64,000 nt of DNA. Origin: an uncultured delta proteobacterium. Lineage in GTDB: Bacteria; Myxococcota_A; Polyangia; Polyangiales; JAFGIB01. Shown piece after piece: positions 3,748-28,560 of the stretch; position 1 is the stretch's first letter; the number at the start of each line of letters is the position of its first letter. The DNA is taken from assembly GCA_963778655.1 (NCBI GenBank), contig CAVZVA010000009.1, forward strand, positions 906,235 to 970,234, in the 5' to 3' direction. The notes under the pieces were generated by a model, which saw only the letters and a program-made list of their open reading frames with translations, ran no database searches and was not told the origin of the DNA. The position numbers were made by a program, and so were the translations under genes.

Positions 3748-4353
3748 GTGCGGCTCGAAGCTGCTGCCGTTGCACCGGGGGTTGACGCTGTGCGTTTGAT
3801 TTCCACGGCGCTTGAAGGCGTGGTCGTGATCGAGCCGGACGTGTTCGAGGACCCGCGCGGATACTTCTTCGAAAGCTATTCGGCGCGACGCTTTGCGGAG
3901 CGGGGTCTGCCCGCTAGCTTCGTTCAAGACAACGTCTCGCGTTCGTGCCGGCACACGCTGCGCGGTCTTCACCTGCAGTCTCCGCCATTCGCGCAGGGCA
4001 AGCTCGTATACGCGCTCGAGGGCGAGGTGCTCGACGTCGCAGTCGACGTGCGCCCTGGCTCCCCGACCTTCGGCAGCGCCGTGGCCCAAGTGCTTTCAGA
4101 GAAGAATCGCCGGCAGTTCTACGTGCCGCCAGGTCTCGCGCACGGCTTCTGCGTCATCAGTGAGCACGCCGTCGTGGCGTACAAGTGCACCCAGTACTAC
4201 ACGCCGCAAGCCGAGCTATCGGTGTTGTGGAGTGACCCCGACCTCGGCATTGAATGGCCGACGTCGACCCCGCTGCTGTCAGCGAAGGACGCGGCGGCTC
4301 CTCGGCTGCGCGATATTGCCCTAGAGCGCCTGGCGCCAGGGGAGCGGGAGTAG
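3748..4353 (+). CDS. rmlC: dTDP-4-dehydrorhamnose 3,5-epimerase
   Basis: RmlC cupin motifs are present: VVVIEPDVFEDPRGYFFESY, RGLHLQ, QGKLVYALEGEVLDVAVDVR and FYVPPGLAHGF. The true start may be the in-frame GTG at 3790. Confidence 0.9.
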   Translation: MRLEAAAVAPGVDAVRLISTALEGVVVIEPDVFEDPRGYFFESYSARRFAERGLPASFVQDNVSRSCRHTLRGLHLQSPPFAQGKLVYALEGEVLDVAVDVRPGSPTFGSAVAQVLSEKNRRQFYVPPGLAHGFCVISEHAVVAYKCTQYYTPQAELSVLWSDPDLGIEWPTSTPLLSAKDAAAPRLRDIALERLAPGERE

Positions 4354-4355
4354 GC

Positions 4356-5210
4356 GTGCAGAGCACCGAGCTGTCGCCGTTGCTCCTGGTCGGCGCCACG
4401 GGCATGCTGGGTCGCGCGTTCGCCGCGCTGCTCACGCGCGAGAACCTCGCCTTCAAAGTGATGGATCTGCCGGAAATCGATCTCGCTGTTCCGGAGAGCA
4501 TTTGCGCAGCGGTGCAGCTCGGCGTGCGCACCGTGATCAATTGCGCGGCCTTTACCAACGTGGACGCCGCCGAGAGCGACGAGGCCACCGCAACCGCCAT
4601 CAATGGCGAGAGCGTCGGCGTTCTGGCGCGGCGCTGTGCGGAGCTCGGCGCAACGCTGGTGCACTTCAGCACGGACTATGTGTTCGATGGTTACGCAGAT
4701 CGACCCTATCCCGTGGATCACCAGCGTGCGCCGATCAACGCGTACGGTCGCAGCAAGGCACTCGGTGAGCGCTTGCTAGAGCAGAGCACGGCCCGCCACC
4801 TGCTCGTCCGGACCAGCTGGCTGTATGCCCCGTGGGGCAAGAACTTCGTGCTGACAATGCGCGAGCTGATGCGAACACGCGCATCGGTCAAGGTGGTCGG
4901 CGACCAGGTCGGGCGTCCCACCAGCGCCGAGTATCTGGCGGAGCGGTCGTTTGCGTTGCTGCGGCGCGGCTGCACCGGGAGCTTTCACGTGACCGATGGG
5001 GGCCAGTGCTCCTGGTACGGGTTTGCCGCTCGGATCGCGGCCTCCGAGGGGTCGAGCTGCCAGATCGTCCCCTGCACGACCGAGGAGTTTCCACGACCCG
5101 CTTCCAGGCCGCGCTACAGTGTGCTCGATCTGAGCCTCACCGAGGCGGAGATCGGACCGTCGCGCCCGTGGGAGGAGAGCTTGGAGCGCGTCCTGTCGGC
5201 GCTTTCGTGA
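4356..5210 (+). CDS. rmlD: dTDP-4-dehydrorhamnose reductase
   Basis: GTG 4356 lies 2 nt after the rmlC stop. Motifs: LLLVGATGMLGRAF Rossmann start, YGRSKALGE (YxxxK), and a C-terminal RPxYSVLD-type motif (RPRYSVLDL). The ORF-track start at 4254 overlaps rmlC. Confidence 0.9.
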   Translation: MQSTELSPLLLVGATGMLGRAFAALLTRENLAFKVMDLPEIDLAVPESICAAVQLGVRTVINCAAFTNVDAAESDEATATAINGESVGVLARRCAELGATLVHFSTDYVFDGYADRPYPVDHQRAPINAYGRSKALGERLLEQSTARHLLVRTSWLYAPWGKNFVLTMRELMRTRASVKVVGDQVGRPTSAEYLAERSFALLRRGCTGSFHVTDGGQCSWYGFAARIAASEGSSCQIVPCTTEEFPRPASRPRYSVLDLSLTEAEIGPSRPWEESLERVLSALS

Positions 5211-5278
5211 TCGTGGCGGCTGCGATTTGACTTGTCGAGGCTTCAGGGTCACAGCAGACGCGACCGCCATACTCGGGT

Positions 5279-5854
5279 ATGGGCTTCTTCCTCACGCAGA
5301 CTCCGGAAGGCGATTGGGCTCCCGGCATCGGCGACCCTACGCCACTCGGATGGTTCACGGTGTTCGCCTATCTGGTGGCGGCCGTCCTGTGCTTCCGAGC
5401 TTGGCAGAGAGCTCGCCGCGGGGCAACGGCCGAGCCGCGTCTGGCCTTTGCCTGGGGCTGCTTTGCCGTATTGATGTTGGCGTTGGGCATCAACAAGCAG
5501 CTCGATCTGCAGACCTTGCTGACCGTAGTCGGCAGGCGCGTGGCCCAGCGCGACGGCTGGTACGAGCGCCGCCAAGTCGTTCAGCGACTGTTCATCCACG
5601 GGCTCTTGGGGCTGGCTTCTGCGTCCCTCTTGGCTGGCTTCTGGTTCATGCGCAAGCACCTGCGAGAGCTATGGCTTGCGGGCTTCGGGGCGATCTTCAT
5701 CGCCACCTTCGTGTTGATCCGCGCCGCGTCGTTCCACCACGTGGACATCCTGCTCGATCGCACCTACCTAGGGGCTCGCGTCAACTGGATACTCGAGCTC
5801 GGTGGCATTGCCTGCGTAGCAGCGGGCGCGCGCCTGCAGGGGCGCCGCCAGTGA
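5279..5854 (+). CDS. hypothetical integral membrane protein (about 5 predicted TM segments)
   Basis: The 191-aa ORF has several hydrophobic helices (FTVFAYLVAAVLCF, FAWGCFAVLMLALGI, LLGLASASLLAGFWF, AGFGAIFIATFVLI). Third-position GC bias is good. I recognise no family. Confidence 0.55.
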   Translation: MGFFLTQTPEGDWAPGIGDPTPLGWFTVFAYLVAAVLCFRAWQRARRGATAEPRLAFAWGCFAVLMLALGINKQLDLQTLLTVVGRRVAQRDGWYERRQVVQRLFIHGLLGLASASLLAGFWFMRKHLRELWLAGFGAIFIATFVLIRAASFHHVDILLDRTYLGARVNWILELGGIACVAAGARLQGRRQ

Positions 5855-5901
5855 CTTCGCCGCCCCATTGCCGTCGAGCCGCGAGCGGGCGGCCGCGCGC
5901 G

Positions 5902-7545
5902 TCAGGCCCACCAGCGCAAGTGCCCGAATAGCAGGGCATCGGCCGCAAGCAGCAGGTTGGTGACCGCGTGCGCCGCGATCGCGTCGGTCACGCGCCCGCG
6001 CCGCTGTTGCGCCAGGGCGTAAGCCAGACCTGCGCAGGTGCCGGCGAGCCAGTCTGCATGCAGGATGCCGAATCCGAGCGACGATACGACCCATGCTACC
6101 CAGGCGATCCGTCGCGGGTCCGCCTCGGTGAAATCCGCGCGCATGAGCCGTCGCAGCAGGTAGCCCCGAAACGCAAGCTCTTCGGCGATCGGCACCACCA
6201 CGCACGCTCCCAGCGCGCGTCCCGCGAGCCATACGCCAGCACGCACTGGCCCCAACATGCGCAGTCCCTGGCGCAAGTCCCGCACCGCTGCTTCGTCGCC
6301 GCCCGCGGCTAGCAGATACCAGAGCCCGAACACCGCCACGCCGATCCCAACGCTCTGCCAGTGCAACCCCAGCGGCAACTCGCGATAGCGTGAGCGTAGC
6401 GCGAACAGCACCGCGAGCACACATGCCGCGCGCACCGGATAGAGCCAGTCGAACCCGATGTTGAGCAAGCCTGTGGCCAATCCGGTCGCGAGCAGCGTCA
6501 GCAGCGGCAGCAGATAGGCGGTCGCCGAGTTTGTATGCCCCTGGTTCGCGGTGTCGCCTTCGCTGGCAAAATAGCGTGCATTGCGCGCTATCGCGACGAA
6601 GCCCAGCGCAACGGCCGAAAAGAGGAGCCAGCCGGCCTTGGAGTGGAATCCACCGATCGCGAGTTGCGGCGATAGGTAGGTTCCGACGAGGATCAGCGCG
6701 GCGATGCGGACGATGTTCGCCATCCACACAGTGATCACGGCGATTGGAAGCAGCGCCAACGTGCGGGGGAACCGCAAGTGTCGACGTTCGATGAGCATGT
6801 ACCCAGACAGCAAGACCACGATCAGGCCGATGCCCTCGAATCCAGAGCAAATGGGTGCGACCTGCACGGCGAAGTGCGCGGTGCCAATTGTCAACGCGGC
6901 CGGTCGGACGAGGACGTCGTCCACGATCGGTCGCAGCACCGCTGCAACCGCGGAGAGCGTGATCGACGCCATCTTGTGCCAGCCTACCGAGGACAGCTCG
7001 CCGCCAACCCAGGCGGCCATGCCCGCAGCCACCCCTACACCGAGCGCGGCGGCGAACACGCGCCGCAGCTGTGAGAACGCACGCCAGGGCAGCGCGAGCG
7101 GTAGCCACGTGCCGAACACCACCAGGCCCGATAACAGCCAGCCGATTCCCCAACCGAGGCCCGGTCGAACCCCCGGATCGCCAGCGAAGACGTGGCGCGT
7201 GACGAGCAAGAACAGGGAGTAGGCGGCTGCATGCACGGCCGCGAGCGGCCATGGGTTACCCTCGGATCCGGATCTCGGCGAAAGCCCGGACAGCGCGCGC
7301 CGCAGCGTGGGCCCCATCAGCGCGAGGGCCGCCGCGGTCGCGACCAGCGCAATTGAGCCGAGGTCGCCGACGTAGTGCAGGCCCGACAGCAGGTCGCCGT
7401 TTGCTTGCAGCGACTGGGCGTCGAACAGGAAGCTGATCAGCAGGTACTCGCCGAGCAGCAGTGCCCCCGCCGCAAGCAGGCGCCTGACCAGAGGCCTGCC
7501 TTGCGCCGGCGACACTTTGAGGTCTTCGGGCGAAGGAAGGGCCAC
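5902..7545 (-). CDS. exosortase fused to a CPBP (CAAX-type) intramembrane protease domain; matches the 'exosortase E/protease, VPEID-CTERM system' architecture
   Basis: The N-terminal polytopic part carries the exosortase Cys/Arg/His signature: APICSGFEG (Cys codon 6847-6849), ANIVRIAALILVG and GFHSKAGWLLF. The C-terminal part carries CPBP motifs: EELAFRGYLLRRL, FGILHADW and HAVTNLL. The gene starts 21 bp downstream of the substrate gene. Confidence 0.8.
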   Translation of the reverse strand: MALPSPEDLKVSPAQGRPLVRRLLAAGALLLGEYLLISFLFDAQSLQANGDLLSGLHYVGDLGSIALVATAAALALMGPTLRRALSGLSPRSGSEGNPWPLAAVHAAAYSLFLLVTRHVFAGDPGVRPGLGWGIGWLLSGLVVFGTWLPLALPWRAFSQLRRVFAAALGVGVAAGMAAWVGGELSSVGWHKMASITLSAVAAVLRPIVDDVLVRPAALTIGTAHFAVQVAPICSGFEGIGLIVVLLSGYMLIERRHLRFPRTLALLPIAVITVWMANIVRIAALILVGTYLSPQLAIGGFHSKAGWLLFSAVALGFVAIARNARYFASEGDTANQGHTNSATAYLLPLLTLLATGLATGLLNIGFDWLYPVRAACVLAVLFALRSRYRELPLGLHWQSVGIGVAVFGLWYLLAAGGDEAAVRDLRQGLRMLGPVRAGVWLAGRALGACVVVPIAEELAFRGYLLRRLMRADFTEADPRRIAWVAWVVSSLGFGILHADWLAGTCAGLAYALAQQRRGRVTDAIAAHAVTNLLLAADALLFGHLRWWA

Positions 7546-7566
7546 CCGCGCTGCCTCGTTCTCGAG

Positions 7567-7824
7567 CTAGGGCGCGACTCGCCGTCGCCGAGAACGGTCC
7601 ACTGCCAGCGCGATACCCCCGAGGAGCAAGGCCAAAGCCTCTCCCCCCTGGGTGGGGTTGAGCTCCGGTACCGAGGGCACCTGCTCGCCGCGCTGCAAAC
7701 TCCAGCGCCGCCATGTGTGGTGAGCGCGGAGGCTGTGTTGCGGCGGTTCGGCCAGACCGCTAGCTGGCAGCACCATTGAACCCAGGGTCCAGAGAACGAG
7801 TCCTGTGCCGATATACTTTTTCAT
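7567..7824 (-). CDS. small secreted protein with a VPEID-CTERM/PEP-CTERM-type C-terminal sorting signal (putative exosortase substrate)
   Basis: ATG 7824 is preceded by GAGGGGA. The signal peptide is MKKYIGTGLVLWTLGSMVLPASG. The C-terminus reads VPSVPELNPTQGGEALALLLGGIALAVDRSRRRRVAP, that is, a VPE motif, a TM helix and an Arg cluster. The ORF-track start at 7926 adds a non-hydrophobic leader. Confidence 0.75.
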   Translation of the reverse strand: MKKYIGTGLVLWTLGSMVLPASGLAEPPQHSLRAHHTWRRWSLQRGEQVPSVPELNPTQGGEALALLLGGIALAVDRSRRRRVAP

Positions 7825-7880
7825 GATGTGTCCCCTCATTCTAGGAGGTCCGTAGGACTCATGGTCCTCAAAGGGAGATT

Positions 7881-7899
7881 CTTGCACGCTTCGTGCCAA
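7881..7899 (-). promoter_or_regulatory. candidate sigma-54 (-24/-12) promoter for the substrate/exosortase operon
   Basis: The minus strand reads TTGGCACGAAGCGTGCAAG. This is TGGCACG-N4-GTGCA against the consensus TGGCACG-N4-TTGCW, with exact GG-N10-GC spacing. The GC lies 60 nt upstream of ATG 7824. Confidence 0.5.
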
Positions 7900-8146
7900 G
7901 TCGTTCACTGCGCGATCATGCGCCACTCCAAGATACGATCACGCAAGCAAGGGCGACGAATCGCCTCTAGGATCCAGGAGCGACGGTATCACTCTCAACA
8001 CAGGCTCGCAAATCGTTCGCCCAGCTGACGCAGAGCCTGCACAACCCTGTTGAAGTACTGGCCCTTGTGTTTCCGTGCGGAAACCGGCGCTCAGAATCGC
8101 GGCTTGCCTGCCGTCCGACAGGAGATCGAGCCGACCACACATTGGC

Positions 8147-8227
8147 CTGCGCAGTTGGGGGAGCAATCGTCGTGATCAGGCTGCGCCGCTTCTGCGCGGC
8201 TGGCTGCACAGTCTGCGCAGCTGCGCA
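8147..8227. promoter_or_regulatory. cluster of CTGCGC repeats including a perfect 14-bp palindrome (candidate enhancer/UAS)
   Basis: CTGCGC starts at 8147, 8181, 8192, 8213 and 8221. CTGCGCAG (itself palindromic) is at 8147-8154 and 8213-8220. TGCGCAGCTGCGCA at 8214-8227 is a perfect palindrome about 55 bp upstream of the plus-strand -24 element. Confidence 0.35.
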
Positions 8228-8282
8228 CCGACCCGTGGCGAAGGCCAGCATTCAAGCCCCAGCAAAGCCCCTGTGATTTGGG

Positions 8283-8299
8283 TGGCACGGTCCATGCTT
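8283..8299 (+). promoter_or_regulatory. candidate sigma-54 (-24/-12) promoter for the glycosylphosphotransferase/export operon
   Basis: TGGCACGGTCCATGCTT is TGGCACG-N4-ATGCT, with exact GG-N10-GC spacing. The GC lies 55 nt upstream of ATG 8352. Confidence 0.5.
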
Positions 8300-8351
8300 A
8301 TGATTGAAGCCAGTATCTCCTTCAACCCGTTCCTCCTGAGGCTTTGCTGCC

Positions 8352-9761
8352 ATGCGTGACCCCCGCGGTGTGATTCGGCCGTACGAAACGGAAGTCGAGT
8401 TTGCCTCGCGCCTTGCGGACATGGTGTGGATCAGCGTCGCGTTGTTCATCGTGTCGCTGGTCTTCGGTGAGCCGTGGCACAACGGTGAGAGCCTCGCTGC
8501 CGCTGCGGCTTCCATCCTCTTCTACCTGTTCGGCGAGGCTAGCGGGCTCTACCGCCCCCAGCGTGGGGAGCCCGTGCGCGAAGAGCTCATGCACCTGGCG
8601 ACCGCCTGGCTGGGGGTCGTCGCGATGCTCCTGCTCGTGGCGTTCTTGACCAAGACCTCGGCGCACTATTCCCGAAAGATGATGGCCGCGTGGGTGGTCG
8701 TTGCGCCGGGAGCACTTTGGGCTTGGCGCGTCGTCTTGCGCATCATGCTGCAGGAAGCGCGCGTGCGCGGCTACAACAGCCGGGCCGCGGCGATCGTCGG
8801 GGTGTCGGCGGTCGGCGAGCGGTTGGCGCGCCGCATTGCGCTGTCGCCTTGGATGGGCGTCAGGCTGGTCGGGTTCTTCGACGACCGCGGCATCGAACGG
8901 TTGGAGCCGAACAACGAGGTGCAGATCGAAGTGCAGGGCGGCTTCGACGCGCTGGTCGACAAGGCTCGCCGTCGCGAGGTCGACATGGTGTACATCGCGC
9001 TGCCACCTCGCGCCGAGCCGCGCATCAACGCCCTGGTGCGGCGTCTGGCAGATACCACCGCTTCGGTGTACTTGGCGTACGACTTCGGCGGCTATGATCT
9101 CCTCAGCGCGCGCTGGTCCAGCGTGGGCGAGGTGCCGGTCATGAGCGTGGTCGAGGACCCGTTTCACGGCGTCGATGGCCTCGTCAAGCGTCTCGAGGAC
9201 ATCGTGATGGCCGGCATCATCCTCGGCATCATCGCGGTTCCGATGGCGGTGATCGCACTGGCCGTCAAGCTGACCTCTCGCGGTCCAGTGTTCTTCCGCC
9301 AGCGCCGATATGGCCTCAACGGCGAGGAGATCCGCGTGCTCAAGTTCCGCACCATGACCGTGTGCGAGGACGGCAACGAGGTCGTGCAGGCGACGCGCAA
9401 CGACAAGCGGGTCACCCCGATCGGGGCGATCTTGCGGCGCACCTCGCTCGACGAGCTGCCGCAGTTCCTCCAGGTGCTCTCGGGCACCATGTCGATCGTC
9501 GGGCCCCGGCCGCACGCGGTCGCCCACAACGAGCAATACCGCTCGCTCATCCGCGGCTACATGCGGCGGCACAAGGTCAAGCCCGGCATCACTGGTTGGG
9601 CGCAGGTCAACGGCTGGCGGGGTGAGACCGATACCGTCGACAAGATGGAGAAGAGGGTCGAGTTCGACCTCGAGTACATCAATCGCTGGAACCTCGGCCT
9701 CGACCTCAAGATCATCCTCTTGACCGTTTGGACCGTGCTGCGCAACCGCAACGCGTACTGA
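8352..9761 (+). CDS. exopolysaccharide polyprenyl-phosphate glycosylphosphotransferase (WcaJ/EpsZ-type priming sugar transferase)
   Basis: The 469-aa protein has N-terminal TM helices, a central Rossmann-like region (AAIVGVSAVGERLARR) and the C-terminal bacterial sugar-transferase domain. Domain motifs: KRLEDIVMAGIILGI, VFFRQRRYGLNGEEIRVLKFRTM, SLDELPQFLQVLSGTMSIVGPRP and PGITGWAQVNG. Confidence 0.88.
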   Translation: MRDPRGVIRPYETEVEFASRLADMVWISVALFIVSLVFGEPWHNGESLAAAAASILFYLFGEASGLYRPQRGEPVREELMHLATAWLGVVAMLLLVAFLTKTSAHYSRKMMAAWVVVAPGALWAWRVVLRIMLQEARVRGYNSRAAAIVGVSAVGERLARRIALSPWMGVRLVGFFDDRGIERLEPNNEVQIEVQGGFDALVDKARRREVDMVYIALPPRAEPRINALVRRLADTTASVYLAYDFGGYDLLSARWSSVGEVPVMSVVEDPFHGVDGLVKRLEDIVMAGIILGIIAVPMAVIALAVKLTSRGPVFFRQRRYGLNGEEIRVLKFRTMTVCEDGNEVVQATRNDKRVTPIGAILRRTSLDELPQFLQVLSGTMSIVGPRPHAVAHNEQYRSLIRGYMRRHKVKPGITGWAQVNGWRGETDTVDKMEKRVEFDLEYINRWNLGLDLKIILLTVWTVLRNRNAY

Positions 9762-9916: not shown

Positions 9917-10987
9917 ATGTACCCATTCCCTCGGGCACGGATTTCGCTCAGCAAGAAGAGCGCGCTGGGATGCCGAGCCACGTCACCGGCGCCGTCGCAT
10001 TGGGCCCTTTCTGCCACGGCACTTGCGGCGATCGTCGCCGCGGGCTGTGCGTCGTTTCCGCCGCCGCCTATTCTGCACTCGGGCATGGGCACCGCCCCAG
10101 GCATCGCCAACGATCGGCCGCCGGATGGCTCCTTGCGCGCGGGGGACCAAGTCTTGATCGATGTCATCAGCGGGGGCCGGGTACGTCAACGCCGAGGCGT
10201 GGTGGATGCGCGGGGCCAGTTGCACGCAGCCTCCGAGCGCGATGTCGCCGTTGCGGGCTTGTCCCTGCCTCAGGCCGAAAGACGGATCGCCGAGGCCGTG
10301 CATACCTCTGACAAGTTTGCCGAAATCGAGTTGCACCTGTCGCCCCGCTCTCCCCGTCGCATGAGCGCATTCGGTGCGTTGACCAGGCCCGGGTACGTCA
10401 CGCTGACTCCGGGAATGCGCGTGGTCGATGCCATCGCGGCCGCGGGCGGGGTGCAGAGGGCGTCGGCGTCCATCCTCGGCGGAGGGCCGTTGCCGGTGCC
10501 GGTAGGCGATCTCGAGGAAGCCGTGTTGATCCGCAACGGCAAGGCCCTGCCCATCAACGTCGATCAGGCGTTGCGTGGGCAGCGTCGCCACAACGTGTAC
10601 CTGCACGCTGGCGACCAACTCTACGTTCCGCCTGCCACGGACAACGGGGTCAGCGTCTTGGGGCAGGTGGGCGCCCCCGGAATCTTTCCCCACCGCCACG
10701 GTCTGCGATTGACCGAAGCGCTCAGCGAAGCCGGCGGCATCACGATCGGCGGCGACAAGGACGACATCCGTCTGATCCGCGGACCGGTCGAGGCGCCCGC
10801 GGTGTACAGGGCGAGCCTGACGGCCATTGCCGAGGGCAAGCGTAGAGACGTGCGGCTACGATCGGGGGACGTGATCTTCGTCACCGACCACCCAATGGAA
10901 GACCTGGGCGAGGTGATGAGGCTCGTCATCCCATTCGTCGCGATCGGCGTGAGCGCGCTGGTCGTCGCCCTGATCGTGTCGCAGTGA
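9917..10987 (+). CDS. polysaccharide export protein (Wza/Poly_export + SLBB-like), lipoprotein, copy 1
   Basis: A lipobox-like AAIVAAGCAS is present. Poly_export/SLBB-type segments: GDQVLIDV, GQLHA...VAVAGLSLPQAERRI, VSVLGQVGAPGIFP and LRLTEALSEAGGIT. It ends in a hydrophobic helix (VIPFVAIGVSALVVALIV). Confidence 0.8.
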   Translation: MYPFPRARISLSKKSALGCRATSPAPSHWALSATALAAIVAAGCASFPPPPILHSGMGTAPGIANDRPPDGSLRAGDQVLIDVISGGRVRQRRGVVDARGQLHAASERDVAVAGLSLPQAERRIAEAVHTSDKFAEIELHLSPRSPRRMSAFGALTRPGYVTLTPGMRVVDAIAAAGGVQRASASILGGGPLPVPVGDLEEAVLIRNGKALPINVDQALRGQRRHNVYLHAGDQLYVPPATDNGVSVLGQVGAPGIFPHRHGLRLTEALSEAGGITIGGDKDDIRLIRGPVEAPAVYRASLTAIAEGKRRDVRLRSGDVIFVTDHPMEDLGEVMRLVIPFVAIGVSALVVALIVSQ

Positions 10988-11053
10988 GCGATTGACCGAG
11001 CGGTTGGGCCTGGCAAGATGCATGGCCGGAGCTCCCGCGGAGGAGATGCAAGC

Positions 11054-12076
11054 ATGTGGCGCCGGATCTGCAGCATCGTGTGCATCTACAGCGTGGTCGC
11101 CAGCTGTGGCGGACTGCCCCAGGCGCCCGCCTACCCGCGCAAGGGAGACGGTTTCTCGGGACCCAATCCTCTGGCCCGCCCCGGGCTTCCCCGGGATCGC
11201 GCTCCGGCGCTCACGCTCCAACCCGGCGACGTGCTGAGCATAGACGTCGCGTCCGAGCAGACCAAGACCTGGACGGGCATCGTGGTCGACGCTACCGGGC
11301 AAGTACATCTGCCGATGGCGGGCGACGTCGAAGTCGGCGGTCGGGGCTTGAGTGAGGCCGAGAGAAGGGTGCAAGAAGCCCTGCGCAAGTTCGACCGCTT
11401 CGTGCAAGTCACGATCGAGCTCACGGACGCCAAGGGGCAGCATGCCACCGTTCTCGGCGCGGTCACCACGCAGGGCTCGGTTCAGCTCATCCCAGGGGCG
11501 CGGGTGGCAGACGTGATTGCGAGCGCCGGGGGACCCCTGACAGCGCCCGCAACTCCGGGCTCCCCGCCGCTATCCATGGCAGACCTGGACGGAGCGGTGC
11601 TGATTCGAGGCGGCAAGCCGCTGCCGATCAGCATCGCCAAAGCGCTACGAGGCGACCCCGCGCACAACGTGTACGTCCACCCCGGAGACCACATCTACGT
11701 GCCGCCCGCGCTGGGCTCGAGCATCAGCGTGCTGGGGCAAGTCGGTACGCCGCGCGTGTTTCCGCACCATGCAGGGCTGCGGCTCACGCAGGCACTCGCG
11801 CTGGCGGGCGGCGTCACCGTGGGCGCCGACAAGAGCGATATCCGCGTGATTCGGGGCACGCTCGAGGCGCCGCGTGTCTACCGCGCCAGCTTGCGTGCCG
11901 TCGTCGACGGCGATTCGCACGACGTGCTGCTGCAGCCGGGCGACATCATCTTCGTGACCGACCACCCGATCGAGGACATTGGAGAGGTCGTCGGGCTGGT
12001 TGCGCCCGTGCTCTCGCTCGGTCTGAGCAGCGCGTTGCTGGCCGTTACGCTCAACCGCACCACCACGAGCCACTGA
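11054..12076 (+). CDS. polysaccharide export protein (Wza/Poly_export + SLBB-like), lipoprotein, copy 2 (tandem paralogue)
   Basis: ATG 11054 lies 9 nt after GGAGGAG. The signal/lipobox is MWRRICSIVCIYSVVASCGG. The protein is colinear with copy 1, for example ISVLGQVGTPRVFPHHAGLRLTQALALAGGVTVGADKSDIRVIRG...GDIIFVTDHPIEDIGEV. The ORF-track start at 11018 is possible but lacks an RBS. Confidence 0.8.
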   Translation: MWRRICSIVCIYSVVASCGGLPQAPAYPRKGDGFSGPNPLARPGLPRDRAPALTLQPGDVLSIDVASEQTKTWTGIVVDATGQVHLPMAGDVEVGGRGLSEAERRVQEALRKFDRFVQVTIELTDAKGQHATVLGAVTTQGSVQLIPGARVADVIASAGGPLTAPATPGSPPLSMADLDGAVLIRGGKPLPISIAKALRGDPAHNVYVHPGDHIYVPPALGSSISVLGQVGTPRVFPHHAGLRLTQALALAGGVTVGADKSDIRVIRGTLEAPRVYRASLRAVVDGDSHDVLLQPGDIIFVTDHPIEDIGEVVGLVAPVLSLGLSSALLAVTLNRTTTSH

Positions 12077-12091: not shown

Positions 12092-14128
12092 TCAGGGCGG
12101 GGTTCCTTCCGCCGCCGGCGCCTGCCGTTTCAGCAGCCGCCGGTATTCGACCGCATGCGATCCGGCCGGATAACTCTCGAGGTAGCGATTCATGGCTCGT
12201 TCGGCCCTGGGCTGCTCGCCCATCGCGCGGTAGGTCGCGATCAGCAGCTCCAGCTCGCGGGCGCTGCTCGCTTTGTCCTTGAGCACGCGCACCACGCAGT
12301 CGTTGTCACCGCGTGACAGACAGTCGAGCGCCTGTTGCAGCCGAGCTTGAGGTGCGTCGGCAGCAGCTGGCGCCGGCCGCGCGGCGGGTGGCGCCTGGGG
12401 CGGGGCGGACGGTTGTATGGCCGGCGCGGGTGTGGGGCTCGGCTCTGGCGGCGCGGGGCTCGGGGCGCTGGCTCTCGGCGGTTGGCTCGGCTCCACCCCC
12501 GAGAGCGCCGTGGTTTGAGCGGCTCGCGCCGGTCCGTGGCTCGAGGTGTGCGGCACGCCGCTCGGCGGCGCGTGCGGCGCCTCGTGTGTCGAGGAGGAGC
12601 CCGCGGAGGAACCTCTGGGCGGTTCGTTGTTGGGCGGTGCCAGCGCCTGGGATGACCCGCTGCCCAGCGTCGGTGCGCTGGCAGCCGGCTGGCCGGCGTG
12701 AGCCGCGTGCGTGGGGGCTGCCGAGGCCGGCGCTGCCGCCGCCGGAGCAGGTAACGGTGCTGGAGGAGCCTTTGGCGCGGACGCTGCAGGGCTCGGGGCG
12801 GGCTCGGGATGACTGACGACCTCTTGCCCCGCGCCGACCGTGCCTCCGCCGAACACGCGGGCCAGCCCTGCCGCCGCGGCTAGCCCCGTACCGAGAATCA
12901 CCCACAGCATCCAGCGCGATCCCTCTGAGTGGCGATCGACATCCGGGAGCATGAACGGGGTTTCGTCGAGCGCGTGCTCATCGTCGCCTGAGGGCAGGGT
13001 CACGCGGGAAGCAGCCTCGCGCACGGTGGTGGCACTCGGCGCGCGCTCCCCAGGGTCGCTGCCGGGGGCCACGGGTCTTGCCGCCTGTGCCCGCAGATCA
13101 TCGGTGCGCCCCGGACCAGGAGGTCGATCGCTGGTCACACGCGACGGCCGATCGCTGTCGCCCGCGCCGGGGTGGCCGGTTCGCGCGGAGAGGCTTTCGG
13201 GTGGGGGCCGGCTGCTGTCTCCCGTCGGGCTGAGCGGGACGGACCGTTCCGGCGCCGCGGGGCCATTGCTCCCAAGCGAGGCGCCACGCCGGGTTCGATC
13301 CAGCCGCTCCCGCAGCGTGCCGGTCGCCGCGCCCGGCGACAACGATCGGGGCAGCAAGGGCGAGGGGCCGGCGTTCCTACGGGTCGCGGCCGCCGGCCGC
13401 GGCGGCAGGGGCGACCGCGGTGGGGGCCGTGGGGAAGGCCAAGGGCTGGGGTCGGCCGGGGCGCGCGAGGCGCGCGCCGGGGGCGAGGACGAAATAGGCT
13501 TGTTGGCGGCGACCTCTACAGTCGGGCTGGCGGGCAAGGGGGAGGGAGGCAGCGGCGAACGCGGGGCGGCTTTGGGCTGCGGAGGCGAGGACTCGGGTCG
13601 CGTGGCCGCGACCCCGCGCAGGGTCGGAGAGCGGCGCATCAGGGCGCTATCGATGATCTGGCGCGTCCCGGGGCTCGGCTCGCCCGGAGTGGCCAGGATT
13701 GCGAACGGCTGGGCGGCCGTGTCCGATGCCCGCACCCGCGGTGGTGGCCCGCTGCTGGTGCGGCGGTCCGAATCGGTCCGATTACGCTGGCGCTCGATCA
13801 GGGCGCGTTCGACGATGCGCTCCACGGCCTCGCGTCCGTCCGCCTCCAGGCGCACAAAGCGCACGCCCATGCCGGCAGGGCCACGGGGATCGCTCTTGTT
13901 TCGCTGCCAGACCACGCGGCCGGTTCCGCGGAAGTAATCGTCGGCCACGTCCGCCGCGCATTCGAAGCGGATCAGGGCGCCGCGCGGGGACGGGCGAGGG
14001 GTGAGGATGAACATCCCGCCCGGGGAAATGTCCCGGCACTCGCCTTCGCGTGGCTCGGTCATCGTCGGCTCGCGGTACCGAGCCACGAGCGATACCTGCA
14101 GGCGGCCTTCTTTTCGGGTGTCGTTCAC
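12092..14128 (-). CDS. PilZ-domain (c-di-GMP receptor-type) single-pass membrane protein with Pro/Ala-rich linkers and a TPR-like C-terminus
   Basis: GTG 14128 overlaps the rmlA stop (GTGA at 14128-14125). Both PilZ motifs are intact: RKEGR (RxxxR) and DISPGG (DxSxxG). About 330 aa of Pro/Ser/Ala-rich low complexity follows, then a TM helix ([21 protein letters not shown]), more Pro/Ala-rich sequence, and a helical C-terminus ([30 protein letters not shown]). The ORF-track start at 14227 would overlap rmlA by about 100 bp. Confidence 0.7.
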
Positions 14129-15009
14129 GCGTTGGGGAGGTCGTCGAGCAGGGACATCAGGTACTGCCCGTACGCGGTCTTGCTCAAGGCAGTGCCCAGT
14201 TGCTCCAGCTGGGCAGTCGTGATCCAACCATTGCGGAAGGCGATTTCTTCAGGGCAGGCGAGCTGCAGGCCCTGGCGCACCTCGATCGTATGAACGAATT
14301 GGGCCGCGTGCAGCAGGGCGTCCGGGGTGCCGGTGTCGAGCCAGGCAAAGCCGCGCCCGAGCCTCTCCAGGTGGAGCGCTCGGCGCTCGAGGTAGAGCCG
14401 GTTCAAGTCGGTGATCTCGAGCTCTCCGCGGGCGGAAGGTCGCAACGAAGCCGCCAAGTCGCTGGCTTGGCCGTCGTAGAAGTACAGGCCGGTGACAGCG
14501 TAGTGCGACTTCGGCTTGGCCGGCTTCTCCTCGAGGCTGATCACGCGGTCCTGCGCGTCGAGCTCGGCCACGCCGTAGGCCTCGGGGTCTTTGACCCAGT
14601 AGCCGAATACCGTGGCCCCGGTCTCGCGCTTGGCCGCGCGCTCCAGCACGCCGCTAAGCCCGCCCCCGTAGAAGATGTTGTCGCCCAAGACCAGGGCGCA
14701 CGGTCGGCCGCCCAGAAACTCGCGCCCGATCAGGAACGCTTGAGCCAGGCCGTCCGGGCTGGGTTGGACCGCGTACGAGAGGTCGAGCCCCCACTGGCTG
14801 CCGTCCTGGAGTAAGGCACGGAACGCGCTCTGTTCGTGGGGCGTGGTGATGACCAGGATGCGCCGGATCCCCGACAGCATCAGCGTGGTGAGCGGGTAGT
14901 AGATCATCGGCTTGTCGTAGACCGGCATGAGCTGCTTGCTCACGCCACGAGTCAGCGGGTGCAGCCTCGTGCCTGTGCCTCCCGCCAAGATGATCCCCTG
15001 TTCAATCAT
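14125..15009 (-). CDS. rmlA: glucose-1-phosphate thymidylyltransferase
   Basis: [40 protein letters not shown] is the canonical RmlA N-terminus. The protein is full length at 294 aa. Confidence 0.95.
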
Positions 15010-15248
15010 TGAGTCTCTCCTGGTGTTCCCGCCGTTCGGCTAGCGGAACCTGCCGCTCGGCGCAAGGGGCCGCCATTCGAGGTGCGACCCGTGCTCGAGA
15101 GCCTAGCGGGCCACCCCGGGACCGGCCACAGGATACCGCAGCAATGTGCTGGCAACGGAATAACGCGCGCCAGGACGAGCTGGTCTGGGCACCCACTTGT
15201 GCGATACTCCTCCGATCCGCAAGGCCGACGGCAAGGGACCGCGCGCAC

Positions 15249-16313
15249 ATGAGCTCAGGCAACATCCTCGTTACCGGCGGAGCCGGCTTCATCGGCTCGA
15301 ACTTCCTCAACCTGTGGGTGCCGCGCCAGCCCGATCGGCTGTTCGTCAACGTCGACAAGCTCACCTATGCCGCCAACCTCGGCAACCTGCGCGCGATCGA
15401 TGCACGCGACAACTACCGCCTCGAGCGCATCGACATCGCGGACCGCGACCAGGTCGCGGACGTGTTCGAGCGGCACCAGCCCGAGCTGGTCGTGCACTTC
15501 GCCGCGGAGAGCCACGTGGACCGCAGCATCGAGGAGCCGGACGCGTTCATCCGCACCAACATCGATGGCACCTTCAACCTGCTCGAGGCATTCCGCCGCC
15601 TGCACGCGCGCCGGCCGAGCGCACTGTTCCACCACGTCAGCACCGACGAGGTGTACGGCTCGCTGGGCGATCAAGGGTATTTCACCGAGAGCACGCCCTA
15701 TGATCCCTCGAGCCCGTATTCGGCATCCAAGGCCTCGAGCGATCTGCTGGTGCGCGCGTATGCCCGCACCTACGGCTTGTCGGTCAAGATCACCAACTGC
15801 TCGAACAACTACGGCCCGTACCAATTTCCCGAGAAGCTGATCCCGTTGATGATCCTCAACGCGCTCGAGCGCAAGCCGCTGCCGGTCTACGGCGAGGGCA
15901 AGAACGTGCGCGATTGGCTCCACGTGGAGGACCACTGCGAGGCGATCTGGGCGGTGATCGAGCGCGGCCGCATCGGCGCGACCTACAACGTGGGCGGTCG
16001 CAGCGAGCGCCGCAACCTCGACGTGGTCCAGGAGATCTGCCGGCTGGTCGCGGAGGAGACCTCCGCGCCGAGCGCGGAGTTGCTCGGTCTGATCACCTAC
16101 GTGCGCGACCGGCCCGGCCACGACCTGCGCTACGCGATCGACGCCTCCAAGATCGAGCGCGAGTGCGGCTGGCGCCCGCGGCACACCTTCGCTACCGGCC
16201 TGCGCGGCACCGTGCGCTGGTACCTCGAGAACCGCGCATGGGTCGACGAGGTTCGCACCGGCGACTACCAGCGCTGGATCGACGCCAACTACGGGCGGCG
16301 CTCCCCGGCTTGA
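15249..16313 (+). CDS. rmlB: dTDP-glucose 4,6-dehydratase
   Basis: ATG 15249 gives [19 protein letters not shown]. Further motifs: [21 protein letters not shown] (YxxxK) and [17 protein letters not shown]. The ORF-track start at 15009 adds an implausible 80-aa leader across the divergent intergenic region. Confidence 0.95.
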
Positions 16314-24195: not shown

Positions 24196-24504
24196 GGCTT
24201 CGGGACGTTAGGCATTCTTTCGCGCTCAGGCAATGGGCTCCAGGGCGACATCCCACGTTGAGGACGCGCCACCAGTTGCTCGCAAGCGCCCGCACGCGAT
24301 CGCCGCGAGGTCCCTCGCCGCGGACGCGTCTCGAGCCCGTCGCGGGGTATCGACCTCCCCTCAGAAGTGGGGCGCGCGCACGTCCAGACCTACATGCGCG
24401 CGTCGCAGCGTCCACCTGGGCCGGCCGGACACACGTTCCCCGCGCCGTGCCGATCACATCGCGGCGTCGCAGTGCGTGCTGTAGAATTGAAGCCGAGTCC
24501 GCGG

Positions 24505-27500
24505 ATGGCCAACAGCCAGGTTCTAGCCAGCATCATACCCGGCAGCCTGATTGCCGGACGCTACACAGTGGAACACGCCCTGGGCAAAGGGGGTATGGGC
24601 ACGGTCTACGCCGTGCGCGACGCCTCGTCCGGGCGCTCGCTGGCGCTCAAGTACCTCCAGCGCGAAGCCGCCGTGGAGAAGGGGCCGGCGGCCGCGCTGT
24701 TCCAGCGCGAGTATCACACGCTCGCGCACCTGCGGCATCCGCGCGTGATCCAGGTGTACGACTACGGCGTCGACCACGGCCGGCCGTTCTACACGATGGA
24801 GCTGCTCGACGGCAGCGATCTGCGCGAGCTCGCGCCGGTGCAGTGGCCCCGCGCCTGTCGCTTGCTGCGCGACGTGGCGTCGTCGCTGGCGCTGCTGCAC
24901 TCGCGCCGCTTGCTCCATCGCGACCTCAGCCCACGCAACGTGCGCTGCACGCGAGACGGGCAGGCCAAGCTGATCGACTTCGGCACGATGGCGCCGATGG
25001 GTCTGGCCAAGGACGTGGCGGGCACGCCGCCGTACATGGCGCCTGAAGCGATCCACGGCCAGGTGCTGGACGCGCGCACGGACCTGTACGCGCTGGGCGC
25101 GCTGGCGTACTGGACGCTGACCGGGTACGACGCCTATCCGGCGCGCGACGCGCGCGAGCTGCGCCAGCTGTGGCCGCGCGCCATCCTGCCCCCGTCGGCA
25201 TTCGCCAAAGGCGTGCCCGAAGCGCTCGACGCGCTGGTGATGTCCCTGCTCAGCCTCGACCCCCAGGCGCGACCCAGCCACGCCGCCGAGGTGATCGAGC
25301 GCCTGACCGCGGTAGCGGCGCTTCCGCCCCTGGACCAACCCGAGGTCGCGCGCGCCTATCTGACTTCCCCGACGCTAGTCGGGCACACCGAGACCCTGAA
25401 CAGTTTCCACAGGCGTCTGGTGCGCGCCGTGCGTGGTCGCGGCAGCTCGGTGCTGGTGCGGGGCAGCGCGGGCAGCGGCCGCAGCCGCCTGCTGCAAGCC
25501 CTGGTGCTCGAGGCCAAGCTCAACGGCGTGCTGGTGCTCGCGGCGGACGCGGAGGACGCGCAGCGCGGCGAGCTGGGCGTGCTGCGCGCGCTGATCGAGC
25601 GCTTGGTCGAGGCGGCTCCCGATCTTGCGGCGAGCAGCTTCGAGCCCTACGCCGCCGTGCTGGGCGGGCTCTTTCGCGCGCTTCACGCGCGGCTTCCCAA
25701 CGCCCGGCCGACCAGCCTGCTGGCCGACCGGCGGGCACAGCTCGCGCGCGAGCTGCAAGCCGTGCGCGAGTGGCTGCTCGCGGTGTCGCGCGAGCGTGCG
25801 TTGATGGTGGCCATCGACGATGCGGACCATGCAGACGAAGCCTCCCGCGCGTGTCTGACGCTGCTGGCCGGAGACGCGCCGCATGCGTGTCTGGTAGTCG
25901 CGGCGGCGCTCGAGAGCGAGCAGGGCCACGAGGCGCTGGAGCTGCTGGCGGCCGGCGCCGTGCACGTCGCGCTGCGGCCGCTCGACGCGGAGCAATCGCT
26001 GCGGCTGCTGCGTTCCGTGTTCGGCGACGTACCGCAGCTGCAGGTGGTCGCGGACTTCATCCACACGCTCGCCCAGGGCAATCCGCGCACGATCATGGAG
26101 CTCGCGCAGTATCTGGTCGACCGCAGCATCGCACGCTACGAGCGCGGCACCTTTACCTTACCCGAAACGCTGCGCGATCAGGCCTTACCCAAAAGCATCG
26201 AGCAGGCGCTGTCCACGCGGATCGCGTCGCTCAGTCCTCCGGCGCGCGCGCTGGCCGAGGCGCTCTCGCTGGTGACCGATCACGGCCATCTCGAGCTCGA
26301 CGAGGTGGTCGAGCTCTCGGGTCCCCAGGGCCCGAAGCAGGCCTATGGCGCCGTCGACGAACTGGTCGCCTCGCAGGTGCTGGTCGCCGCAGGCAGCAAG
26401 CACCACCTCAGCCACCGAGGCCTGGCCCAGGCGCTGCAACGCAAGCTGCTGCCCGAGCGCCGGCGTCTGCTGCACCTGCGCTTGGCGGCCGTGTACGAGG
26501 ATCGCGCCATGCGCGCGCACGGGGCGGACGCCCGGCTGCTGGGCGCGTATCACCGCTACCTGGGCGGCGACATGGACGCCTGCCTGGCGGCAATCGCCAG
26601 CGAGAGGCTGATCGCCGATTCGGCGTTTCGACGCACGGCCGAGGCGGCCCAGATGTACGACGCTTGCGTCACGCACTTCGAGGCCGCCGGCTTGCCGCCC
26701 TCGCGGCTGTATCCGCTGCGCAAGGCGCTGCTGTGGCTCTCCTCGAGCACGGATCCCACGATGATCAAGCACGCCGGGCCCGCGCTGGCCCAGCTCTGTC
26801 ACGACTCGGGTCGGATCTACGTGGAAGAGATCACCGACGAGCCCGATCCGGTGGCACGGATCCGCCGCTGCATCGACCGCGCCCGCAGCACGTACGAACG
26901 CGCCGACCCCTCGCAGCGCGGGCTTACGCCGGTCGAGGCGATCCGTGAGCTCGGGACGTGCACGCTGATGCTGACCGAGACGTATGTGCTCAACAACGAC
27001 GCCGCGGCGCTCGCGCGCTTGCCCGACGCGATCGATCCCTTCCGGCCGCTCTCCGCCGTGCTTGGCCTGCTGCGCGAGCTGGCGAGCCAGGCGCTCGAGG
27101 CGCTGCGCGGCAAAGACGTCGCCCAGCGCCGTCTGGCCTTGCTCGAGCGGCTCGATCTCCCCCTCGAGGGCCTCGAGCCCAGGTCCCAGCATGCGATTCG
27201 GTGCAGCTTGATCTACTGGCACGCCATGGACGAGGCCGCGCTCGGCAAGCCCGCGGTGCTGGAGCGCGCCGCGGAGCTCGAGCGGCATCCGCTCTACGCG
27301 CCGCTGGGCGCCCAGGTGCGCAGCGTGTTCCATCTGTTCTCCGGCAACGAGGAGGAAGCCGAGCGCTGGCAGCGGCGCCGCGAGCGGCTGTCGTTGCAGA
27401 CCCCGTTCTCGAACTTCGCGAGCACCCGCGGGATCATTCACGAGGCCTTCGGCTACTACCTGTGCGGCAGCGTGCTCGGGATGCGGCGCACGCTGCAGGC

Positions 27501-28560
27501 TGCCAGCAAGCTGGCGGCGCGCCATCCCGGCTGGAAGCCGCTGTTGCGCACGGTCGAGGGGATGTACGCCCTGCTGCGCGGGGAGCCGGCAAACGCGCTC
27601 GTGCTTCTCGACGCCGAGCGCGCGCTATCGGGGCGCGTGCGCGCGTTACTTGCGCTGGGGCGCGCCGAAGAGGCGCATGCGCTGGCGCAGCGAGGGCTCA
27701 ACGATCCGGGTCGGGAGGGCGATCACCCGTTGTGGTTGCACCGCCTGCGCGCGGCCGCGGCGCTGGCACGCTCGGCGGCGGGCGACCCGGCCGGCGCGGC
27801 GCACGCGCTCGATGGCGACATCGAGCGTGCGGAGGCCGCGGGAGTCGGCGGCATGCTGCTCTGCGGCATGCACGAGGCGCGCGCCCGAATCGCGATCCAG
27901 ATGGACGATCGCAGTGCCTTTCGGCGGCACGTGCGCAAGCTCGGCGCGACCTACGGCCGTGGCACCTCCGCGCTGCGCGCGCGCTACGAGCAGCTCGGCG
28001 TGGCCGCGCGCCAGGCGCTGCTCTCCATGCCTCCGCCGCGCTCCGTGCCGGCGCCGAGCTCGCACTTTTCCGGCGCCTCGTCGGTGCGCTCGCTGCTCGA
28101 CTCGGCGATGACCCCCTCACAGCGCTTGCAGCTGGCGCTGCAAATCCTGGCCGACCAGGCGAGCTCGGCGCGCGGCTTTCTGTTCGCCATGCACGGCTCC
28201 GGTATGCGCGTGGCAGCCACGTTGGGCGGAGGGCCGCCCCCGGAGGGTCTGGACGACATGCTGGCCTTCTATCTCAGCGCAGAGCTGGACTCGGGTCCGG
28301 CAGCGCCCAGCGCCGCCGCGAGCATCACCGGCACCTTCGCGAGCGCGCCCGACATGGTGGCGTGGATCAACGACGGCCACAGCCTCTACTACCCGGTGCT
28401 GCTGAGCTGCGTGCGGGGCGAGCGCCGCGTGATCAGCGGCGTTGCCGTGCTCGCGCTGCCGGTCCAGCGCGACCCCAAGCTGCCGCCGGAGCTCGTCTCC
28501 GAGCTGAGCGGCGCGCTGCTCGATGCCGGCGACGTAGTGGGCGTGCAGGCGGCCGACTGA
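24505..28560 (+). CDS. Ser/Thr protein kinase fused to an AAA/STAND NTPase-like region and a long helical (TPR-like) C-terminus, paralogue 1
   Basis: ATG 24505 gives MANSQVLASIIPGSLIAGRYTVEHALGKGGMGTVYAV. Kinase motifs: LALKYL, HRDLSPRNV, DFG and PPYMAPE. The P-loop-like segment is GSAGSGRSRLL. About 900 aa of helical repeats follow. Confidence 0.88.
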   Translation: MANSQVLASIIPGSLIAGRYTVEHALGKGGMGTVYAVRDASSGRSLALKYLQREAAVEKGPAAALFQREYHTLAHLRHPRVIQVYDYGVDHGRPFYTMELLDGSDLRELAPVQWPRACRLLRDVASSLALLHSRRLLHRDLSPRNVRCTRDGQAKLIDFGTMAPMGLAKDVAGTPPYMAPEAIHGQVLDARTDLYALGALAYWTLTGYDAYPARDARELRQLWPRAILPPSAFAKGVPEALDALVMSLLSLDPQARPSHAAEVIERLTAVAALPPLDQPEVARAYLTSPTLVGHTETLNSFHRRLVRAVRGRGSSVLVRGSAGSGRSRLLQALVLEAKLNGVLVLAADAEDAQRGELGVLRALIERLVEAAPDLAASSFEPYAAVLGGLFRALHARLPNARPTSLLADRRAQLARELQAVREWLLAVSRERALMVAIDDADHADEASRACLTLLAGDAPHACLVVAAALESEQGHEALELLAAGAVHVALRPLDAEQSLRLLRSVFGDVPQLQVVADFIHTLAQGNPRTIMELAQYLVDRSIARYERGTFTLPETLRDQALPKSIEQALSTRIASLSPPARALAEALSLVTDHGHLELDEVVELSGPQGPKQAYGAVDELVASQVLVAAGSKHHLSHRGLAQALQRKLLPERRRLLHLRLAAVYEDRAMRAHGADARLLGAYHRYLGGDMDACLAAIASERLIADSAFRRTAEAAQMYDACVTHFEAAGLPPSRLYPLRKALLWLSSSTDPTMIKHAGPALAQLCHDSGRIYVEEITDEPDPVARIRRCIDRARSTYERADPSQRGLTPVEAIRELGTCTLMLTETYVLNNDAAALARLPDAIDPFRPLSAVLGLLRELASQALEALRGKDVAQRRLALLERLDLPLEGLEPRSQHAIRCSLIYWHAMDEAALGKPAVLERAAELERHPLYAPLGAQVRSVFHLFSGNEEEAERWQRRRERLSLQTPFSNFASTRGIIHEAFGYYLCGSVLGMRRTLQAASKLAARHPGWKPLLRTVEGMYALLRGEPANALVLLDAERALSGRVRALLALGRAEEAHALAQRGLNDPGREGDHPLWLHRLRAAAALARSAAGDPAGAAHALDGDIERAEAAGVGGMLLCGMHEARARIAIQMDDRSAFRRHVRKLGATYGRGTSALRARYEQLGVAARQALLSMPPPRSVPAPSSHFSGASSVRSLLDSAMTPSQRLQLALQILADQASSARGFLFAMHGSGMRVAATLGGGPPPEGLDDMLAFYLSAELDSGPAAPSAAASITGTFASAPDMVAWINDGHSLYYPVLLSCVRGERRVISGVAVLALPVQRDPKLPPELVSELSGALLDAGDVVGVQAAD

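Follow-up and report, generated by a model that had tools for sequence, protein, structure and literature searches.

Two adjacent genes in a 64,000-nucleotide stretch of contig CAVZVA010000009.1 (hereafter the window) encode an exosortase fused to an intramembrane protease and, immediately upstream, a very small pre-protein that ends in a sorting tail. We read the pair as a dedicated exosortase E (XrtE)/VPEID-CTERM processing module in the exopolysaccharide locus of a Myxococcota-like bacterium, operating by the mechanism proposed below, and give this reading a probability of about 0.6. The XrtE/VPEID-CTERM class is already catalogued in NCBIfam and Pfam, and its members are named by JGI and NCBI annotation. 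The window locus is a fairly divergent further member of this catalogued family, and assigning it there is correct annotation rather than discovery. The modest additions made here are a phylum-wide survey of target size, a WRRW-RG motif that marks a subfamily of targets, and the fixed polysaccharide synteny of the clade to which the window belongs.

The larger gene, xrtE-like (5902-7545, minus strand), has a GTG start with GAGG 8 nucleotides (nt) upstream and encodes 547 amino acids (aa). An exosortase half (approximately aa 1-322; 6580-7545, minus strand) is followed by a CPBP (Rce1-like) intramembrane protease half (approximately aa 340-547; 5902-6528, minus strand). All of the motifs on which the first-pass annotation had based its description of such a fusion are present. 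The exosortase half contains ICSG (Cys233, codon 6847-6849), NIVRI (Arg280, 6706-6708) and FHSKAGW (His301, 6643-6645), and the CPBP half contains EELAFRG (Glu455 and Glu456, codons 6178-6183, with Arg460), FGILH (His496, 6058-6060) and HAVTN (His526, 5968-5970, and Asn530, 5956-5958). Each of these nine residues is invariant in an alignment of 28 homologous sequences sharing 36-57% identity.

The family that the first-pass annotation had named from these motifs, 'exosortase E/protease, VPEID-CTERM system' (TIGR04162), matches the protein at 208.7 bits against a cutoff of 150 (E 1.8e-61), with aa 120-539 aligned to model positions 95-509 of 516. TIGR03008 (pepcterm_CAAX), a model for CAAX-protease-related proteins of PEP-CTERM systems, is also passed (120 bits against 81, aa 365-546). 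Broader models find the same two domains: the exosortase/archaeosortase signature TIGR04178 scores 51.7 bits over aa 227-319, PF02517 (Rce1-like) scores 59.3 bits over aa 439-532, and PF09721 (Exosortase_EpsH) scores 30.8 bits. A check for membership in a different exosortase subclass did not place the enzyme in one, as XrtA (TIGR03109, 32.5 bits against 208), XrtD (19.8 against 400) and XrtB (18.7 against 275) all fall far under cutoff, and the nearest archaeal model, ArtC, reaches 41 bits against 100. These models and residues place the enzyme in the exosortase E/protease family and show that it has kept both catalytic sets complete.

An AlphaFold2 model of the enzyme (mean predicted local distance difference test score, pLDDT, of 88.7) is almost all helical, with one small sheet at residues 211-228, just before Cys233, and a disordered linker at 331-336 (pLDDT below 50) between the two halves. 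A profile search of PDB sequences gave no matches. Loops rich in Lys and Arg lie at 78-100, 153-162, 248-267 and 321-344 of the exosortase half, and because of these loops a crude reading of hydropathy and the positive-inside rule, which covers the membrane face of that half only, would put the Cys/Arg/His triad at the periplasmic leaflet.

The smaller gene (7567-7824, minus strand) lies exactly where it had been annotated, 21 bp upstream of the enzyme and in the same orientation. Its TAG stop is separated from the enzyme's GTG by 21 nt that include the GAGG, and the two genes are probably co-transcribed. The ATG start follows a Shine-Dalgarno sequence, GAGGGG at 7832-7837, by 7 nt, and the full translation, MKKYIGTGLVLWTLGSMVLPASGLAEPPQHSLRAHHTWRRWSLQRGEQVPSVPELNPTQGGEALALLLGGIALAVDRSRRRRVAP, is an 85-aa pre-protein with no Cys at all. 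It divides into a signal peptide, MKKYIGTGLVLWTLGSMVLPASGLA, a basic segment, EPPQHSLRAHHTWRRWSLQRGEQVPS, and a tripartite tail, VPELNP-TQGGEALALLLGGIALAV-DRSRRRRVAP. The predicted Sec signal peptide (aa 1-25; 7750-7824, minus strand) was read from the sequence as MKK, a hydrophobic core and SGLA before Glu, and is kept as MKK...PA.G.A[ED] in alignments of the clade; signal-peptide cleavage sites here and below are heuristic estimates. Removal of both signals would leave a mature segment (aa 26-51; 7672-7749) of 26-29 residues, about 3 kDa, with an isoelectric point (pI) of 9.6-11.5 and a composition rich in Arg, His and Trp, in line with the basic product of roughly 30 residues first envisaged. 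Just before VPEL, this segment holds a W-R-R-W-x3-R-G block (aa 38-46; 7687-7713, minus strand). The sorting tail itself (aa 52-85; 7567-7671, minus strand) consists of VPELNP, the membrane helix GGEALALLLGGIALAV and a DRSRRRR cluster that ends 3 residues from the C-terminus.

A short reading frame of this kind could be spurious, and its G+C content at third codon positions (GC3), 0.72 compared to 0.80-0.88 in neighbouring genes, is on the low side. No sigma-70-like promoter or convincing terminator was found near it, although a sigma-70 scan is uninformative for such a genome. Set against this are the Shine-Dalgarno sequence and signal peptide, the independent call of the same gene by gene callers in another assembly, the retention of motif and tail in 21 cluster representatives, and equivalent open reading frames (ORFs) in 110 of 129 related loci. 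That the 85 codons are not an expressed gene is, in our view, scarcely credible.

Among NCBIfam models, the pre-protein is best matched by TIGR04161 (VPEID-CTERM), across model positions 1-31 of 31 (E 2e-5), and a precomputed match of the small protein to PF27847 is marked 'weak' in Pfam. Because the TIGR04161 match is sub-threshold, we built our own hidden Markov model (HMM) from 133 tails adjoining XrtE genes and searched it against six-frame ORFs of at least 30 aa from the window and from the 129 loci surveyed below. It recovered the 85-aa ORF at 39.6 bits (E 4.6e-10) and, among all six-frame ORFs of the 64-kb window, no second VPE-type tail at E <=1, which upholds the earlier statement that no other protein in the window carries such a tail. 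The 127 tails from XrtE loci have the consensus [VA]-P-E-[IL]-D-[PAG]-[GSA]-[SAT] and no Cys; among about 125 tails counted, Leu occupies position 4 in 25 and Asn position 5 in 4. The window pre-protein has the tripartite layout of motif abutting a membrane helix and then a basic cluster, at its extreme C-terminus. A PEP-CTERM model found no match to this tail at E <=10, and a MYXO-CTERM model (cutoff 20) reached 17.4 bits with the whole pre-protein and 20.2 bits when given only the tail, each time ranking behind VPEID-CTERM. These comparisons, together with the small tail genes of orthologous loci, support the original assignment of the small gene as a VPEID-CTERM-type target.

The absence of Cys bears on which half of the enzyme acts on the tail. 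One could propose that the CPBP half makes the cut, as myxosortase does on MYXO-CTERM, and that the exosortase half only binds the substrate or performs a separate ligation. MrtX, a CPBP protease, is required for cleavage of a tripartite tag of motif, helix and Arg cluster, and co-expression of MrtX in Escherichia coli also leads to cleavage of the tag (Guo, Haft and Wall 2025). The JDVT-CTERM/MrtJ system likewise consists of one enzyme and one adjacent target (Haft 2023), and the CPBP half of the window enzyme weakly matches both MrtJ (34 bits) and Mrt_core (32.6 bits). However, these scores are far under the respective cutoffs of 75 and 100, as is that of MrtP (21 bits against 250). Myxosortase-type tags also need an invariant Cys (Haft 2023; Guo, Haft and Wall 2025), which neither the window pre-protein nor the VPE consensus possesses. 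The exosortase triad, moreover, is strictly invariant in the family, so selection acts on the exosortase half as an enzyme. We consider cleavage by the CPBP half rather unlikely, and cleavage by the exosortase half remains our preferred reading.

How dedicated the enzyme is to its neighbour can be judged from its relatives. More than 400 homologues were found, many of them named 'exosortase E/protease (VPEID-CTERM system)', with the nearest non-self sequence 60% identical. We examined 80 genome loci from Myxococcota, Planctomycetota, Acidobacteriota, several proteobacterial classes and Gemmatimonadota, and added metagenome loci, and base the counts on 129 loci that hold the enzyme; the metagenome scan returned distant relatives only, at most 52% identical in a partial match and otherwise at most 45%. 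At least one tail-bearing ORF lies near the enzyme in 110 of the 129 loci (one in 68, two in 30, three to five in 12), and 172 of 175 tail ORFs share a strand with the enzyme, most of them a short way upstream of it. The tail ORF is absent in 19 loci, roughly half of which are truncated contigs. The small ORF and its VPE-helix-Arg tail are thus kept in orthologous loci, and in the XrtE family a lone tiny target next to its enzyme is the rule and a defining trait. The first-pass annotation was right about the arrangement, a dedicated enzyme beside a single mini-peptide gene; its emphasis needs correcting, since this is no peculiarity of the locus.

The targets are small throughout. Lengths of 127 distinct tail proteins have a median of 67 aa and a 10th-90th percentile range of 56-102 aa, with a few at 145-302 aa. 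Between signal cleavage and the xPE motif we estimate a median of about 16 residues over all loci, and lengths of only about 10-20 are common; the figure is about 13 for Planctomycetota and Acidobacteriota, about 37 for Myxococcota-like loci and 36-55 for the clade of the window. Set against these medians, the window peptide is on the large side for its family.

When neighbouring ORFs were clustered, no third gene family was broadly shared near XrtE. The commonest, a fatty-acid-hydroxylase-like membrane protein and Wza-like exporters, occurred in 15 (the maximum) and 12 loci, and a universally conserved third partner gene was ruled out by this clustering. As far as gene neighbourhoods go, the enzyme and its mini-target are the only constant pair of XrtE loci, kept across phyla.

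The same survey bears on whether the enzyme might serve additional VPE-tailed proteins elsewhere in the genome, with the mini-gene as just one of its clients. The tail scan covers 64 kb, some related loci carry 2-5 tail genes or no adjacent target, and a few tail proteins reach 145-302 aa. But nearly all tail ORFs sit beside the enzyme and on its strand, and searches with the 85-aa protein yielded small homologues only, plus five long matches that miss the tail. The original description of the family, in alphaproteobacterial hosts, reportedly called it 'dedicated (single-target)'. A wider clientele therefore seems unlikely, and we retain the dedicated pair as the working interpretation.

Two observations from the survey deserve separate mention. 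A membrane protein with fatty-acid-hydroxylase-type His boxes adjoins the XrtE and tail genes in 15 loci (L037, L039, L041, L056, L063, L088, L089, L093, L098, L099, L101 and L103-L106). Several of these loci come from Acidobacteriota metagenome-assembled genomes (MAGs), and most of the others are metagenome contigs without a label; the neighbour could point to a lipid partner in that lineage. An FA_hydroxylase gene is also present in the window (30867-31667), but 23 kb from xrtE. In L074, from a gammaproteobacterial MAG, a 32-codon ORF, MKIRHTLLAALTLMLLTSVLLLAAERSRSRRP (5794-5916, plus strand), occupies the target-gene position directly upstream of XrtE. It resembles a signal peptide fused straight to the end of the tail, with the VPE motif gone, and may be a decayed or collapsed target.

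Within the window's own clade, conservation extends beyond the tail into the peptide. When 1.84 billion cluster representatives were searched exhaustively with the 85-aa protein, 21 small homologues emerged, almost all of 78-116 aa, although an N-terminal extension brings one of them to 193 aa as called; the five long matches cover only query residues within 7-44. A word-indexed protein search with the same query found only the protein itself. Arg40, Trp41 and Gly46 are invariant in 6 close relatives, and a W-[RK]-[RK]-W-x3-4-[RKH]-G block can be recognised in 20 of 22 representatives in an alignment read by eye. The distance from this block to VPEL is fixed, while the spacer between signal peptide and block varies by 0-45 residues, so selection acts on the portion of the peptide adjoining the cleavage motif. 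This portion could be the payload or an extended recognition element.

The genes around the pair are equally constant in this clade. Seven further enzymes (53-60% identity) were traced to contigs, one of which starts at the small gene, so that six contigs and the window, seven in all, are informative. In 7 of 7, a WcaJ-type priming transferase gene lies directly upstream and divergent, followed by the small gene and then the enzyme. The small gene is called at 83-102 aa in these contigs, apart from one mis-called at 32 aa and one at 193 aa. Longer contigs also hold rmlA, rmlB, rmlC and rmlD, a PilZ protein of about 700 aa and two Wza-like exporters; in the relatives, Pfam recognises Poly_export/SLBB domains in these exporters.

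The window follows the gene order of the clade. The order starts from rmlD, for dTDP-4-dehydrorhamnose reductase (4254-5210, plus strand; TIGR01214, 271 bits, above cutoff), followed by xrtE, the small gene, and a wcaJ-type undecaprenyl-phosphate glucose phosphotransferase gene (8352-9761, plus strand; TIGR03023, 543.7 bits against a cutoff of 410.75). Two tandem Wza/EpsE-like polysaccharide export genes come next (9917-10987 and 11018-12076, plus strand; sub-cutoff matches to TIGR03028 and TIGR03027), then a gene for a PilZ-domain protein of about 700 aa with a syntenic counterpart in relatives (12092-14227, minus strand; PF07238, 46.2 bits), rmlA (14125-15009, minus strand; TIGR01207, 476 bits, above cutoff) and rmlB (15009-16313, plus strand; TIGR01181, 481 bits, above cutoff). 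The listed TTG start of the PilZ gene overlaps rmlA, and the true start is probably downstream. These model matches bear out the earlier description of a polysaccharide locus, and in this clade the product of the XrtE pair probably acts with the adjacent WcaJ/Wza machinery.

Between the divergent small gene and wcaJ is a 527-bp spacer (7825-8351) that is presumably the regulatory region of both operons; it shows no sigma-70-like promoter, and no Rfam elements were found in 5000-9000. On the other side of xrtE, separated from it by 47 nt and convergent with it, is a 191-aa multi-pass membrane ORF (5279-5854, plus strand). It was rejected as part of the system, having no Pfam or NCBIfam match and no conservation in related loci. 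One relative with 56% identity, L082 (TIGR04162, 199.3 bits), has in its locus an acyl-CoA ligase, an acyl carrier protein and an Asn-synthase-type amidotransferase that resemble families of XrtA systems at scores below cutoffs. In the same locus, a nonribosomal peptide synthetase (NRPS) with glycosyltransferase domains lies directly beside the Wza genes.

A conserved, basic peptide also invites the suggestion that the small gene encodes a released cationic peptide, either a signal or a bacteriocin-like antimicrobial, with the fusion enzyme serving maturation and self-protection rather than surface anchoring. The mature segment, at about 3 kDa and rich in Arg, His and Trp, with its conserved WRRW block, would suit such a role, and CPBP is itself short for 'CaaX protease and bacteriocin processing' (Guo, Haft and Wall 2025). 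In most other lineages, however, the two signals are only about 10-15 uncharged residues apart, so this could not be the general role of the family. Genes for transport, immunity or modification are not conserved alongside the pair, whose strict synteny is with polysaccharide genes. We think a released peptide very unlikely, and return to the processing module as the preferred reading.

The mechanism we propose for that module was assembled by analogy with archaeosortase ArtA, exosortase A and sortase. The pre-protein would be exported by Sec and its signal peptide removed, after which the C-terminal helix and Arg cluster would hold the peptide in the inner membrane so that VPELNP lies on its periplasmic side. 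The exosortase half would next use its Cys233/Arg280/His301 site to cut at the VPE motif through an acyl-enzyme intermediate, and the basic, WRRW-containing peptide of about 3 kDa would be passed to a lipid or glycan acceptor or to water. The CPBP half (Glu455/Glu456/His496/His526) might make a coupled second cut, the simplest possibility being that it clears or trims the leftover membrane helix. As the first-pass annotation suggested, the peptide may be a primer, an anchor or a signal. ArtA, of the same superfamily, is the best experimental model for the proposed step; it is required for both removal of the C-terminal helix and attachment of lipid (Haft 2023). The Cys/Arg/His residues are the suspected catalytic triad, and whether the reaction is a one-step transpeptidation is still debated for the whole superfamily (Haft 2023; Guo, Haft and Wall 2025).

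Several observations weigh against this interpretation. A literature search turned up no experimental study of any XrtE/VPEID-CTERM family member. Both halves of the enzyme come from families that process C-terminal tags, and the sequence is compatible with a cut by either; nor does it single out the acceptor of the peptide. The single-substrate description holds for 64 kb. The window tail stays short of the TIGR04161 cutoff of 33 bits (24.5 for the whole pre-protein, 26.8 for the tail alone), and its motif reads VPELN, not VPEID. About six Myxococcales-type loci (L002, L003, L009, L010, L029 and L031) have an intact XrtE and full 6-kb flanks with no tail-bearing ORF; their target gene may lie at another site, or its tail may have diverged too far for our model to recognise. 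Finally, with only about 13 residues between the two signals in Planctomycetota and Acidobacteriota, a role as cargo is hard to picture there, and the family-wide function may not be peptide delivery.

In a more speculative proposal, the XrtE module makes a C-terminally modified mini-peptide and protein sorting is not its purpose. The exosortase half would ligate the VPE-terminated, WRRW-containing 3-kDa peptide to a lipid or to the nascent WcaJ-primed polysaccharide. As a ribosomally made cationic anchor, cap or primer, the product would tether the polymer being exported or regulate it. If this were true, lineages with about 10 residues left would make an even smaller peptide tag. We regard it as a long shot.

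Comparison with known systems shows where the window pair is typical and where it departs. It shares with described exosortase E/VPEID-CTERM systems (TIGR04162, TIGR04161, PF27847) the fused exosortase and CPBP domains with all catalytic residues, and a tiny, adjacent, same-strand VPE/helix/Arg target, one locally. It differs in its sub-cutoff VPELNP tail, in cargo with a clade-specific WRRW-x3-4-RG block, in its ties to a WcaJ/Wza/PilZ/dTDP-rhamnose locus that is absent from most XrtE loci, and in its Myxococcota-like host, as opposed to the alphaproteobacteria in which the family was reportedly first described. Exosortase A (XrtA/EpsH) has a homologous exosortase domain, an exopolysaccharide locus and a CPBP partner that passes the same TIGR03008 model. 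However, XrtA systems act on many, often large, Ser/Thr-rich PEP-CTERM targets and have their protease as a separate gene, and the window enzyme and tail fail the XrtA and PEP-CTERM models. The myxosortase systems MrtX/MYXO-CTERM and MrtJ/JDVT-CTERM also pair a CPBP protease with a tripartite C-terminal tag, in the latter case with the same one-to-one arrangement, but lack an exosortase domain and use tags with an invariant Cys. ArtA/PGF-CTERM belongs to the same superfamily, with the same Cys/Arg/His residues and with helix removal coupled to lipid attachment, but ArtA is an archaeal enzyme that lacks a CPBP fusion and processes large S-layer glycoproteins.

The rest of the window offers clues to the host. 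An 1,114-aa DUF2330 protein (41774-45118, minus strand) ends in ...SGGCNVGGGLPEAGGSGSLLLLALAALIRRRRF. This tail scores 21.9 bits on the MYXO-CTERM model, above the cutoff of 20, and marks the protein as a predicted substrate of a different sorting system, myxosortase, in the same window. Considered as a second XrtE target, it was rejected, as its MYXO-CTERM tag contains Cys and is unmatched by the VPE tail HMM. MYXO-CTERM is reported to be universal in Myxococcota (Guo, Haft and Wall 2025), and the presence of this protein points to a Myxococcota-like host, in agreement with the Myxococcales labels of the enzyme's relatives. Three Ser/Thr protein kinases of about 1,280-1,400 aa lie within 35 kb of one another (24367-28560 and 34812-38669, plus strand; 55862-59698, minus strand). 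Each has a long C-terminal extension, and two of the three weakly match ORC/Cdc6-type ATPase models. The window also contains a divergent pair consisting of a fatty-acyl-AMP ligase (FAAL)/type I polyketide synthase (PKS) of 1,605 aa (45254-50071, minus strand) and an NRPS module of 1,772 aa (50466-55784, plus strand). As L082 has an NRPS beside its Wza genes, the polysaccharide locus could conceivably be linked to a lipopeptide or a glycolipid.

If the proposed mechanism is true, no natural exosortase system would be simpler than XrtE, with its one enzyme and a single peptide of 10-40 residues, and the family would offer a handle on the cut site, on transpeptidation and on the acceptor for the exosortase/archaeosortase superfamily. 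The family could also show why a CPBP protease travels with exosortases. For such work the clade represented by the window has the advantage of a phenotype that can be scored, because its peptide motif is recognisable and its polysaccharide-gene context is fixed.

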